A DNA stretch of 64,000 nucleotides from an uncultured Methanosarcinaceae archaeon (GTDB lineage Archaea; Halobacteriota; Methanosarcinia; Methanosarcinales; Methanosarcinaceae), in contig CAWJYV010000004.1 in NCBI GenBank assembly GCA_963847185.1, positions 128,001 to 192,000 of the forward strand, read 5' to 3'. Each line of letters starts with the position of its first letter. The stretch's first letter is position 1. The notes under the pieces were generated by a model. It did no database searches. It was not told the origin of the DNA and worked only from the letters and a program-made list of their open reading frames with translations. Positions 7,428-12,381 of the stretch are shown one piece after another. A program made the position numbers and the translations under genes.

Positions 7428-7497
7428 CAGCCTGAGTTATGGGGTATCAGCCTAGGTTATGAGGCTTTAGCCTGAGTTATGGGGTTTCAGTTTGAGT
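7428..7497. repeat. Imperfect 20-bp tandem repeat x3.5 (CAGCCTGAGTTATGGGGTAT)
   Basis: Seen directly in the intergenic region. Confidence 0.75.
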
Positions 7498-8389: not shown

Positions 8390-8472
8390 GCGGGAGTAAC
8401 CAAGCGGTCAACGGTGGCAGACTCAAGATCTGTTCGTGCAGACGTTCAGGGGTTCGAATCCCTTCTCCCGCA
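8390..8472 (+). tRNA. tRNA-Leu(CAA)
   Basis: GCGGGAG/CTCCCGC acceptor stem, GCAGA-CT-CAA-GA-TCTGT anticodon arm, long variable arm, GGTTCGAATCC. Confidence 0.95.
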
Positions 8473-8613
8473 CTAAACTCATTATAATTTCTTTTTTCAC
8501 TTAAGCTCTCATTTTCATTTATTTTTTCTAACATATCTATATGTCTTTTGAGTTGCGGCAAGGAACTGAATTACAGGCGCCAGATACATGGAAGACAGAG
8601 AACAATATATTCT

Positions 8614-8746
8614 GAGCTCATCCTAAAACTAATTAGGTCCTCAAAAATTAGTAAAGTTTCAGAACTATTTTTCCATGATCAGAAACTGGATTGATTATTC
8701 GGAATATGGGATTCAGAGAAGCAATTTTGAGTTTTGGGATGAACTC
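8614..8746. mobile_element. MITE family A copy (133 bp)
   Basis: Imperfect TIRs GAGCTCATCCTAAAACT / AGTTTTGGGATGAACTC. Differs by one base from 14887..15019. Confidence 0.85.
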
Positions 8747-9167
8747 TAAGAAATAATACCTTAAAACCTGAAGAAACTTGAAGAAATTGGAAGAAATTGG
8801 AAGAATTGAAGGTTAACTTCTTTTTTTAATACGTTCTATTGATAGTGTTTTTGTGCAGTAAATATGGCTGAATTTTTAACTTTTTTTAACCTTTTGTCTG
8901 ATGGCATTTTTAACCATGTAAAGTCAACTTTCTTTTTTCATTCATGCTTATTGATATTGCTTTTTGAATAAAAACCGGGTTGAAAAATTGATGTTTCTTG
9001 ACTTTCTTTTGTTGCTGTTTATATGTGCCAAAAGTGACAAAATACAACTGTCTTGGATATGCTGAATTAACACAAAAAGGGCAATTCCCTTTTAATATAC
9101 TCTCATGACTCTCGGTTGTTGGTCAAACAACGCAGAGCGACCACAGAGAGATAATTAAGTAAAAAAG

Positions 9168-9196
9168 TATCAGAAACATGTATTACATGTTTCTGA
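9168..9196 (-). terminator. Hairpin + U-tract after the 9211..9288 peptide gene
   Basis: TCAGAAACATG-TAATA-CATGTTTCTGA followed by TACTTTTTT on the minus strand. Confidence 0.6.
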
Positions 9197-9210
9197 AAAC
9201 GTTCTTGAAA

Positions 9211-9288
9211 TTATAGGAGATATGTGAAATCAAAATGAAAGCCGTTAATAATAGCAAAAAACTGACTAAAATTAAATGCAAACATCAT
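9211..9288 (-). CDS. 25-aa Phe-rich small peptide MMFAFNFSQFFAIINGFHFDFTYLL
   Basis: SD GGGGTGA 7 nt upstream, TATA-like ATTAAATA upstream, hairpin + U-tract downstream. Similar to the peptide at 15264. Confidence 0.6.
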   Translation of the reverse strand: MMFAFNFSQFFAIINGFHFDFTYLL

Positions 9289-9499
9289 GTCCTTTTCACC
9301 CCTTCTTAATTGCTCTTTTTCTATGAAGTGTTTTCAGAGCATAGGGTATTTAATTCTTTTTACATGTTTAACAGTCAGAATGTTAACTATTACTTTCACC
9401 AATAAGCTTGTTAAATTTTTTACTCTGAAATATTCATCAGAAGTATGTGTTCTTTAAATTTTATAGAACAGAACGACATAGTTAGATTGTAAGATAAAC

Positions 9500-9895
9500 C
9501 TAGATTCGTAGATGCGCAGGGAGCTTTGAGGGGGGCTTCCTGCACAATCTCTTCCTTCTAAATGCTTTCTCAAAAAATGGATTCTCTTTCTTTCTTGTTT
9601 CTCCTGAAAAAGGTATCCTTACATTTTGTGAACAGTATACCCTTTTCGGGTTATCTGTGGTAAAAGGGGTATTACATTCAATGCAGTTCTTTTGAATTTG
9701 GCCTTGCTCTTCTTTCCTGGCAGCTGGCTTATCTTCCTTATCATATTCAATATCTGGATTTTCCTGAACCACGTAACTATAAGCGCTTGATTCCTTTTCG
9801 ATGGGGGCTCCTAAGACTCTCTGGTTAATGAGAGTTTGAATCTGCAGGAAATAATTATTATACGTTGTTTTGAGGTCCTCTTCTCTTTGAGTCTT
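9500..9895 (-). pseudogene. 3' remnant of a coiled-coil + zinc-ribbon protein (paralog of 10387..11022)
   Basis: The frame extends upstream as REEDLKTTYNNYFLQIQTLINQR without a start. C-terminal CIEC...YCS. Confidence 0.65.
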
Positions 9896-9967
9896 GGAGA
9901 ATTAAGTAAAAATAGGTATCAGGAAATATGAAATTCACGTTCCTGATAGTGTTCTTGATATCATTTA

Positions 9968-10021
9968 TTATCTAAAGAATTCTAATAAAAATACATAAAA
10001 TTCCCAAGGGTATGGTAACAT
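9968..10021 (-). CDS. 17-aa hydrophobic small peptide MLPYPWEFYVFLLEFFR
   Basis: SD GAGGTGA 8 nt upstream. Same promoter and terminator context as 9211..9288 in a duplicated unit. Confidence 0.55.
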   Translation of the reverse strand: MLPYPWEFYVFLLEFFR

Positions 10022-10386
10022 GTTAATTTTCACCTCTTCTTAACAGATTCTTTTTCTTATAATATTAAAGACTGTCATGTATTTAATTATTTCTTCATGT
10101 TTTAATATATTTATTGAAAATTGAATATTTGTAAAAAAATATACCAAGGCCTCTTATTACCAGGTGCCTCTATAGCCTTCTAATTCTATAAGTTTGTTCA
10201 ATTTTTTGCCCTGAAAGATTATTCAGATGGATTTCTTCTTTAAATTTTATGAAAAAAGGATATAGTTAAATTGTAAGATAAACGCTGCCCCGTAGATATG
10301 CAGGGAGCTTTTGGGGGTCAACTCCCTGCAATTTAAAATCTATCTTTTCTCATTTTCTCCTATTAAACGCACTCCTGCATTTCTGA

Positions 10387-11022
10387 CTACATGCTTCTTT
10401 TTTCGGATTTGTTGTAAAAAAAGGGCTCCTTACAATTTTTACATATTTTTCCATCAAGGGCTTTCCTGCCTTCTGTGGAGACACTCTTTTCCTGCAGCTG
10501 GCTTTTATCTTCCTGATTGCTTCCTGTTGCTTCTCGTGAGCTTCCTATGGACTTCTGGTTAATCAATGTTTGAACCTGCAGGAAATAATTATTATGCATT
10601 TGCTTAAGGTCCTCTTTTCGCTGGCCTGCTTTCTTAAGGTCGTTCTCCAGGCGCTCTATGCTCTTATCCTTCTCTTCAAGTACCATTTTAATAGCTTCAT
10701 ACCTGGCCTGCTGCTGGACGAACTCCACAAGATCCGGAGCTTTTGCGAGATCATCTTTCAATTTTACACTTTCAGATTGAAGAGCCTTGATATCCTGTCT
10801 GTATCCTAAATATCCTGAAGATATCCTTCTATATCCTTTCTGTATCCTTCTTGGATCCTTTCCATATCCTGCTTGTATCCTGTTATATCCTCTTGTGGAT
10901 CCTCAAAGAACTTTTCTAGGGCTTTTGTTAAGGCCTGGGTAATATTCATACCCTGCAGTTTCTAACTTATTATAGAGGCTTACAGGTATCCAGGTGTTTA
11001 TTTTGCGTTTCTCTTCGGGCAT
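10387..11022 (-). pseudogene. Frameshifted RHH-like + coiled-coil + zinc-ribbon protein
   Basis: Reassembled across two frameshifts: MPEEKRKINTWIPVSLYNKLETAGY/NITQALTKALEKFF...HNNYFLQVQTLINQK...KICKNCKEPF. Confidence 0.65.
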
Positions 11023-11113
11023 AAACTTGTATTAAATTTTTTAGGGTATTAGTATATCCCTTTGTATCCTGGTTATATCCTATTGATATCCTGGATGTAT
11101 CCTTTGTGTATCC
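10790..11113. repeat. Two arrays of (T/G)ATCC motifs with 9-12 bp spacing
   Basis: 11 copies in 10791..10902 and 6 copies in 11055..11113. Confidence 0.85.
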
Positions 11114-11845
11114 ATGGGAGTGAGTTAGATCAATTTTATAATTCACTCTTTTATATTGCCTATGTGTTTCTTGCCTTATTTTTCTCTTGAAGTATGGGGT
11201 TAATCGATAGGAAAAAAGTTCTACCCAAAAATGGAATAAGCCCCCTGATGTTTAATTTTCACATATGTATTGGGTTTTGTATTCCATAGTACTATGGAAT
11301 GAATCTGAGCCCAAACACATAGGCACATTTTACCGATAACGATTAAAAAAACGAGTAAACAAAAGATTGCCTGATATTAAGCAACATGTCTGATTTCAAA
11401 GATGATTTTATTGAGTAAATTATTGAGAGTAATAAACTCAAAAAGATTTTTGCAAATAAGGCGAAATCGTGTTATGATATATTATGCTTTTATCGTTATT
11501 TGTAAGATTTTTCAGCGAGGTAATATTAAGCCTATTTTTCAATAAGAATATCATACCATAGCTAGAAATTTTAACCTATATATTTATTACACAATTTCAA
11601 AATCCATATATGTCATAACCATAGAATCTACGTAGAAAGAAATAGAGAGTTAAGATGGTGAATAAAGTAAACTGTATTTTTCATAATGCTAACTATTTTT
11701 CTTTTTAATATTCTCGTGTGTACAAAGTCAGGAATTTCTGATAATAATGTGCTTCATATTCCCCCGAAAACAACAGTATCTACTTAATAGATAAACACGC
11801 AACAAAGACAACTGTATGTAATATAACTAAATCAAGGAGAAAACA

Positions 11846-12381
11846 ATGAGTCATACGGCTGAGACTAAACAGGAGCCTGAGACTAAACAGGAGCCTGAGA
11901 CTAAACAGGAGCCTAGACTAAACAGGAGCCTGATTATAAGAAGAACAAAAAGATTTCGGAAATCATCTTAGATTATGTAAATCATATAGCTTCAGGCTTA
12001 TCTATATACTCATTTATAAAGGATTCTACTACAAAGGATTGTAATGAGGCGGTTACAGATTATTACCAGCATAATACAATGGCCACCGATATACCGTTTA
12101 AAATTATTGAACCAAAAGACGGTAGTTATGTACACAGAGTATTCACAGTTTATGGTATATGTGCAATACCTAGCTCATCAATAAACGTATGTGTTATCGA
12201 TAAGTATGGCCAAATATGGCGCGTAGGAACTGCTAACCCAACCACTGATGGACTATGGAAGTGTAGTGTAAGGATTGGGCAGTATGGTAACCAATATGCA
12301 GGAATTTTCACTCTATTTGCGAATTTAACAAAAGATAATAAATCCTATGAAACACCACACATTGATGTAATAAGGTCTTAA
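11846..12381 (+). pseudogene. Hypothetical protein with ETKQEP repeats, frameshifted in the 4th repeat; C-terminal beta-rich (Ig-like?) domain
   Basis: SD AAGGAG and ATG at 11846. GAGACTAAACAGGAGCCT x3 plus one 17-bp copy. Restoring 1 nt joins this start in frame to ORF 12079..12381. Confidence 0.7.

Follow-up and report, generated by a model that had tools for sequence, protein, structure and literature searches.

Phage morons are promoter–gene–terminator units inserted between conserved prophage genes, and orphan toxin-tip/immunity cassettes lie downstream of contact-dependent inhibition (CDI) or Rhs genes. Repeated type I toxin–antitoxin loci of Escherichia coli occur as Ldr/Rdl in long direct repeats and as Ibs/Sib in SIB repeats (a study on such loci is Fozo et al. 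2010). Among the described kinds of genes, those that appear nearest to the locus reported here are the small-protein RNA (spRNA) genes of Methanosarcina mazei. In the preprint on them, spRNAs are individually conserved loci, some of them come with antisense RNAs, at least one encodes a membrane-integrating protein, and spRNA23, 24 and 33 are most likely leaderless (bioRxiv 10.1101/2025.10.28.685009). Our locus lies in a 64,000-nucleotide stretch of DNA from an uncultured Methanosarcinaceae archaeon (assembly GCA_963847185.1, contig CAWJYV010000004.1, positions 128,001 to 192,000; "the window", in whose coordinates we give all positions unless a different contig is named) and carries two tiny open reading frames (ORFs) on the minus strand, each embedded in its own set of predicted expression signals. 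Judging from sequence comparisons, these micro-genes look like real, undescribed small-protein genes, and we put a probability of roughly 55% on their being self-contained units of promoter, leader, ribosome-binding site, ORF and hairpin that make a small, membrane-acting passenger peptide of integrated-element remnants.

The two micro-genes belong to a diverged tandem duplication at 9150–10620, made of two units of ca. 735 to 785 bp. A repeat scan found families of direct repeats at 9402–9885 and 10188–10619 with spacings of 733 to 786 bp and identities of 75% to 91%. Aligned on the minus strand, the units 9140–9900 and 9886–10640 share a mean column identity of 76% over 829 alignment columns with several indels, and a blastn search of the genome with one copy retrieves the other (E 3e-24 and 8e-13), so the duplication is both real and old. 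This agrees with the original prediction of a diverged tandem repeat of about 750 bp, except that the repeat reaches ca. 10620 and does not end at 10330. Read 5' to 3' on the minus strand, each unit consists of the 3' part of a coiled-coil gene, an element of ca. 170 nt that we call X, and the micro-gene.

All signals that had been listed for the two copies, from the TATA-like box over the A-rich leader, Shine–Dalgarno (SD) sequence and tiny ORF to a conserved box, hairpin and T-run, are indeed found in both of them on the minus strand. Micro-gene A begins with a TATA-like box and conserved upstream bases at 9346–9355, which are invariant in 12 of 12 aligned modules and for which we propose a promoter role, followed by a leader at 9289–9327 (identified by conservation and 16S match, with an estimated 5' end at ca. 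9325) that contains the SD at 9296–9302. Its ORF at 9211–9288 comprises 25 codons plus stop and encodes a hydrophobic peptide (grand average of hydropathy, GRAVY, 1.04; 36% aromatic residues), and the micro-gene ends with a hairpin of 12 pairs (9170–9196) and a T-run, together 9160–9196. Micro-gene B has its TATA-like box at 10079–10088, as placed by the module alignment, a leader at 10022–10060 with the SD at 10030–10036 (again by conservation and 16S match), an aromatic-rich ORF of 17 codons plus stop at 9968–10021 (GRAVY 0.62; 41% aromatic) and a closing hairpin (9918–9947) with T-run at 9908–9947. In both copies, the SD lies 7 to 8 nt ahead of the ATG and matches the 3' end of the genome's own 16S rRNA, and a short conserved box separates the stop codon from the hairpin. 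From these parts we infer a transcript of ca. 150 to 170 nt with a conserved leader of ca. 37 nt that would encode a tiny peptide. The hairpin of copy A is also detected by a terminator scan, and what follows the hairpins on the 3' side is a start-less gene fragment for copy B and unique non-coding DNA for copy A. A leader-peptide transcription attenuator is excluded for this reason, since no regulated gene on the same strand is present downstream of either hairpin.

The terminal hairpin is conserved as a structure beyond these two copies. Across ten aligned modules, 83% of hairpin cells are paired, compared to 27% to 59% when the partner columns are slid, and four pairs have changed on both sides, a count that was reached by 26 of 500 shuffles. 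It is also the sole conserved structure predicted in six transcripts of the peptide class to which copy A belongs (S1, see below), and the ribosome-binding site is therefore not expected to be sequestered in them.

Of the 18 micro-gene modules that we found, this genome holds six, nine other genomes together hold eleven, and the last one comes from a metagenome contig; parts of the unit are also present at four further sites of this genome. The leader pattern matches 8 of 177 genomes of the family when up to two mismatches are allowed. At E <= 1e-4, the level beyond which matches in other genera were counted as noise, a sequence-only covariance model of the 5' block hits 8 of the 59 genomes in the genus; it also strongly matches 2 of 6 genomes of a neighbouring genus. 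One exact-pattern scan for the leader returned 111 stretches on metagenome contigs, one of which is a true module by nhmmer, while none of the 10 stretches that such a scan returned on viral contigs is; plasmid records gave no blastn match to micro-gene A. The module family thus seems to be small and confined to some Methanosarcina and one neighbouring genus. One further weak nhmmer match (31 nt on L189, E 1.8e-4) is not among the 18 modules. Two other candidates were discarded, a pattern match with two mismatches in G015 that on sight was an A-rich chance hit and a second match in G009 (E 7e-5) in which no ribosome-binding site followed by an ATG is present. Tandem arrays of unlike peptides recur, as is evident from a second pair of modules on contig 10 of this genome (G000; 295600–296260, L031/L221), which carries peptides of two different classes and has a degenerate coiled-coil 3' fragment after each module.

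What the modules have in common is the frame around the ORF and not the peptide. When the first 12 modules are compared in all 66 pairings, mean identity amounts to 0.69 in the 5' block (95 nt before the ATG) and 0.51 in the 3' block (75 nt after the stop) versus 0.44 in the ORF; in 40 of these pairings, the ORF has the lowest identity of the three. The 18 peptides fall into classes S1 (seven modules, with an N-terminal half common to the members), S2 (two modules, copy B and one in G169), S3 (two modules), S5 (three modules, on contig 10 of this genome and in G009 and G024) and four singletons, where the S2 and S3 groupings were judged by eye. Within S2, copy B and its counterpart in G169 are 77% and 85% identical in the flanks and only 50% in the ORF, and between copies A and B the nucleotide identity of the ORFs is 0.36 versus 0.61 and 0.65 for the flanks. 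Positive GRAVY values of 0.32 to 1.69 are found for 15 of the 18 peptides, six of which are 35% to 41% aromatic, so that the small hydrophobic ORF typical of type I toxins is present in most modules. The three S5 peptides differ from this in being basic (GRAVY −0.75 to −0.88) with two cysteines and in having a GC-rich ORF, and for that reason S5 is not a drifted form of the other classes. A weak match to the S5 peptide in G015 was rejected because it is a shadow-strand match within a flavodoxin-like gene, leaving three modules that match S5.

By these comparisons, at least five unrelated peptide classes share the same expression signals, and the peptides appear to be old paralogous classes that are each conserved across species. 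The original prediction of constant expression signals around a variable small ORF therefore extends from the two copies, whose 25- and 17-codon ORFs read and differ as it had stated, to all 18 modules. Its description of the peptides as "hypervariable" does not hold, since the classes are conserved between species, one of them under purifying selection, and copies A and B simply represent two different old classes. The toxin, signalling, kin-identity or exclusion roles that it proposed for the peptides are hypothetical. The hydrophobic and aromatic character of most classes suggests membrane insertion.

Several lines of evidence indicate that the ORFs are protein-coding. An ATG is found at the equivalent place behind the SD in all 18 modules, 5 to 10 nt away from it in the modules that were compared, and the ORF behind it is open in all 18; the observation that could have refuted the original prediction, homologous flanks in other genomes without an intact ORF, was looked for and not made. 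Within the first 17 codons of the 18 modules, we count no in-frame stop among 306 codons, whereas the other two frames have 27 and 30 (0, 21 and 22 of 204 for the first 12 modules), though the limit of 17 codons was set after the shortest ORF had been seen and the relatedness of the modules makes this contrast overstate their independence. Independent of this threshold are two further patterns, and it is because of them that we take the ORFs as coding and predict their translation. Among six members of class S1 including copy A (codons 2 to 13), the pairwise differences at codon positions 1, 2 and 3 number 84, 37 and 80, and a shift of the frame moves the minimum accordingly, which reveals a three-base periodicity; the second codon position decides hydrophobicity, so this rhythm conserves the very position that sets it. 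For class S5, a comparison between two genomes shows four synonymous and no non-synonymous codon differences, while the synonymous and non-synonymous differences to the third genome stand at 6:6 and 5:6 and fall mostly on third positions, and the S5 ORF is more conserved than its flanks.

These same data bear on the idea that the module is a non-coding small RNA, in which the conserved 5' block would be the functional part and the ORF behind the ATG merely incidental. The 5' block is indeed the best-conserved part of the module, shuffled versions of single modules stay open with a probability of 0.16 to 0.43 so that individual ORFs of 17 to 25 codons are not very improbable, and the S1 ORFs contain runs of T5 to T7 shortly after the ATG. 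Such runs can end archaeal transcription and could thus terminate a short RNA. Nevertheless, we regard a non-coding RNA as quite improbable in view of the absence of in-frame stops, the substitution rhythm of S1, the synonymous changes in S5 and the canonical, correctly spaced SD, and there is no match to an Rfam family either: only tRNA passes the gathering threshold of Rfam 15 in the window, and the best score at 8474–11300 is 25.9 bits against a cut-off of 50.

The explanation that we favour is that an archaeal TATA-type promoter in each unit drives a leader of ca. 37 nt with canonical SD, that ATG and an ORF of 17 to 25 codons follow, and that hairpin and T-run end a transcript from which the tiny peptide would be translated. 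Recombination at the 3' box of the coiled-coil gene family described below would build the tandem arrays and carry the cassettes along, and the most likely role of the product would be that of a small membrane-acting protein, a passenger in the manner of a phage moron or a small-protein RNA, and the peptides might conceivably act like toxins. Apart from the limits of the stop-codon contrast, the openness of shuffled modules and the T-runs of S1, the following points weigh against this explanation. The S1 codon differences are predominantly non-synonymous (105 versus 25 synonymous), which places the constraint in this class on composition and not on sequence, and the peptide of copy A was not found in a collection of 15 billion proteins. 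Membrane insertion is uncertain for peptides of 17 to 25 residues with one to four charges. Three modules look damaged in that the C7 copy is short for its class, the module in G158 has lost half of its hairpin and the ORF of module G169b reads through the hairpin to 56 codons. Finally, 7 of the 18 modules have no fragment of a coiled-coil gene nearby.

Tiny hydrophobic ORFs that each come with a promoter, a strong ribosome-binding site and a terminator, arranged in multi-copy tandem repeats beside the debris of a mobile element, are reminiscent of type I toxin–antitoxin loci such as the long direct repeats of E. coli. On this reading, the hydrophobic peptide would be a membrane toxin whose translation is restrained by an antisense or nearby small RNA. 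On the strand opposite to the micro-genes, AT-rich, TATA-like stretches at the box between stop codon and hairpin and a T5 run opposite the leader, both noticed by eye, would allow for an antisense RNA that covers the ORF, though TATA-like stretches opposite a T-run are expected by chance. The terminal hairpin shows no preference for either strand (seven G.U cells in sense versus five in antisense orientation), and class S5 is basic and not hydrophobic.

Another candidate for the RNA partner is the X element, which runs divergently 100 to 160 nt upstream of the micro-gene promoter and is the best-conserved part of the repeat, although it had not been singled out before. Its copies lie on the plus strand at 9394–9560 (copy A, nhmmer E 9e-51, with a hairpin at 9516–9543 that is more stable when read on this strand) and at 10171–10350 (copy B, by nhmmer and alignment, with a hairpin at 10299–10330). 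The X alignment comprises 17 copies, six from this genome and eleven from G001, G005, G019, G158 and G169. Within its hairpin of 12 pairs, there is one that reads as G.U on the plus strand in 13 of the 17 copies, where the opposite strand would have A.C. A TATA-like stretch precedes the element and a T-run follows it, and X has the appearance of a small RNA gene that converges on the zinc-ribbon gene; a match to Rfam was not found. As a trans-acting partner of the micro-gene mRNA, however, the predicted X RNA was rejected in the form tested, because its duplexes with the mRNA are no better than those of shuffled sequences (z = −0.90, −1.12 and +0.18, 40 shuffles each). With the antisense partner that defines type I systems being only hypothetical here, we consider this explanation rather unlikely. 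We know of no established type I system in archaea. A literature search found none among its leading results, which does not imply that there is none. On contig 7 of this genome, an ORF on the minus strand at ca. 249060–249610 (L040/L196) has an X element on one side and, on the other, a 3' fragment of a coiled-coil gene with a micro-gene; by the look of its sequence, the ORF may encode a paralogue of the TATA-binding protein.

A bolder variant would see in the modules a reusable expression slot between whose signals unrelated micro-ORFs are exchanged by recombination, with at least the hydrophobic classes acting as membrane toxins held back by antisense RNA. We find this doubtful, and a little more so than type I loci of the ordinary kind. 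If true, the repeated type I toxin loci of bacteria would have an archaeal counterpart for the first time, and the conserved 3' box of a virus-linked gene family would carry a cassette-exchange system in miniature.

That gene family is represented in the window by two broken copies. At 10350–11022 on the minus strand lies a pseudogene with at least three frame breaks, as seen from a three-frame reading against intact relatives and an internal stop in the match, which is composed of a ribbon-helix-helix-like N-terminus, short repeats, a coiled coil, a conserved C-terminal box and a zinc-ribbon tail. A 5'-truncated second copy of the 3' part of this gene with a divergent, frameshifted zinc-ribbon tail follows at 9570–9895 on the same strand (unit alignment and three-frame reading; tblastn with the ORF of the other copy, 45% identity). 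In copy B, a remnant of the family's alternative, short C-terminal end without zinc ribbon is inserted between X and the promoter at 10135–10190 (minus strand; tblastn 169 to 113 nt upstream of the ATG, 78% identity), and G169 shows the same order of parts. Sequences of a coiled-coil/zinc-ribbon gene are hence present upstream of each micro-gene as originally predicted, yet neither gene is intact. One frameshift in the upstream zinc ribbon, at 10420–10430 on the minus strand, falls into a run of seven T where six would read through, and a homopolymer sequencing error is therefore possible at that position.

Beyond the window, 75 of 100 candidate database sequences are relatives of the coiled-coil ORF at E <= 0.01. 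Within the genus, the family has matches in 35 of the 59 genomes and as many as 21 in a single one; many of these matches are fragments of the last 40 to 60 residues or carry stops. Full-length members likewise consist of a ribbon-helix-helix-like start, short repeats, a coiled coil and the very conserved C-terminal box, to which either a zinc ribbon or a short aromatic end is joined as the tail, and this 3' box is 77% to 88% identical at the DNA level across genomes and species. Together, the conserved box and the two tails joined there suggest a recombination or attachment site inside the gene. By tblastn, 11 of the 18 modules have a fragment of the family close by, no more than 600 nt ahead of the ATG or 900 nt behind it, and the junction between hairpin and fragment is identical in five modules from different genomes. 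We infer that recombination between copies of the 3' box creates and reshuffles the arrays and moves the cassettes. Searches of Pfam, NCBIfam and PHROGs returned only sub-threshold coiled-coil noise and a weak match to an HNH-type zinc finger (E 3.5e-5) for this family.

In these respects the architecture of the locus resembles that of toxin-tip/immunity arrays, and one could imagine that the coiled-coil gene swaps its C-terminal tail at the 3' box and that stored tails keep their cognate small partner gene as orphan 3' cassettes. A full-length gene, followed by a 5'-truncated fragment that starts at the box and has a divergent tail and then by a different small ORF, is what such a system would look like, and the alternative tails, the conserved box and the abundance of terminal fragments all accord with it. 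We nonetheless consider it improbable, given that the tails contain no toxin or enzyme domain apart from the weak zinc-finger match, that both large genes of the window are broken and that most coiled-coil genes have no micro-gene downstream. Nor does the peptide class track the tail, with S1 following a zinc-ribbon tail here and a short tail at C7 and in G007.

The proposal that the cassettes are "on a mobile element" stands in part. It is supported by the multi-copy, fragmentary nature of the coiled-coil family, by a single IMG/VR contig that encodes a family member, and by a 122-aa ORF convergent with a family gene in G175 (L047:1039-1407, plus strand) that is a terminase small subunit (phrog_4102, E 2.5e-13). 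A similar convergent sequence was noticed by eye after the family gene in several other loci. Among GenBank phages, no tblastn match was found with the full-length coiled-coil protein. No integrase was seen in the window, and Pfam assigns no family to its ORFs from 11 to 17 kb. The tRNA-Leu gene at 8390–8473, on the strand opposite to the cassettes, has no duplicated part in the window or genome beyond chance matches of 10 to 11 nt. Integration at tRNA-Leu was thus rejected for want of both an integrase and a duplicated tRNA 3' end.

With both large genes being pseudogenes while both micro-genes look intact, the array in the window appears to be decaying. The copies could even be inert debris, i.e., unexpressed relics of a decayed integrated element whose relatives may function elsewhere, which would agree with the state of the neighbouring genes, with the low coding density of the region from 8.5 to 17 kb, its MITE-like repeat (a miniature inverted-repeat transposable element) and ORFs without recognisable family, and with a copy B class that is known from two modules only. 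That both micro-genes have kept every signal and an open frame while their neighbours gained frameshifts makes this very improbable.

Other repeats surround the array. The MITE-like repeat of ca. 146 nt at 8613–8759, between the tRNA-Leu gene and the cassettes, is dispersed in dozens of copies of 68% to 97% identity over all ten contigs and has terminal inverted repeats of ca. 20 nt by eye. Another short element, likewise recognised by eye from its terminal inverted repeats, is inserted beside other X and zinc-ribbon fragments just upstream of the window on contig 4 (L014:1362-1504) and on contig 1 (L021). Short tandem repeats are found at 11859–11931 (four 18-nt units within a 41-aa ORF) and at 7429–7490 (three 20-nt units).

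No part of archaeal genomes is less well charted than the small proteins, and ORFs of 17 to 25 codons are missed by gene callers; for M. mazei, a Nat Commun 2024 study (PMC11456600) reportedly offers a Ribo-seq census of small proteins. The module family can be read as a set of 18 natural replicates, with promoter, leader, ribosome-binding site and terminator kept the same around at least five unrelated peptides. It could serve as a test bed for the expression of tiny ORFs in methanogens, for the roles of very short hydrophobic peptides and for the question of RNA-controlled toxin peptides in archaea. A multi-copy gene family may moreover have, in its conserved 3' box, a recombination hot spot that builds cassette arrays. 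A limited literature search found no description of a shared expression frame around unrelated micro-ORFs, which does not imply that none exists.

Each of the known systems mentioned at the outset shares some traits with this family and lacks others. As in CDI and Rhs arrays, a full gene precedes 5'-truncated copies that have kept a conserved recombination box and end in a divergent tail with a small gene behind it, but no toxin domain was found here, tail type and small ORF do not co-vary, and the large genes are broken. Like the Ldr and Ibs loci, the modules are tandem or dispersed repeats of several hundred bp, each with a tiny hydrophobic ORF, its own promoter, a ribosome-binding site and a terminator; in those loci, however, the peptide is conserved and the antisense RNA is defining, whereas here an antisense RNA is hypothetical, different copies encode different peptides, and one peptide class lacks the hydrophobic character. 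With morons they share the self-contained unit beside a gene family linked to viral or integrated elements, though the payload is far smaller, the same signals surround different payloads and a prophage context of the window is hypothetical. Closest are the spRNAs, which are likewise short, independent Methanosarcina transcripts (predicted in our case) for very small proteins with possible membrane integration. Measured against the published description of spRNAs, the modules stand apart by their conserved leader and SD, their multi-copy and tandemly duplicated nature, their ties to fragments of one gene family and the expression signals that are common to unrelated ORFs.

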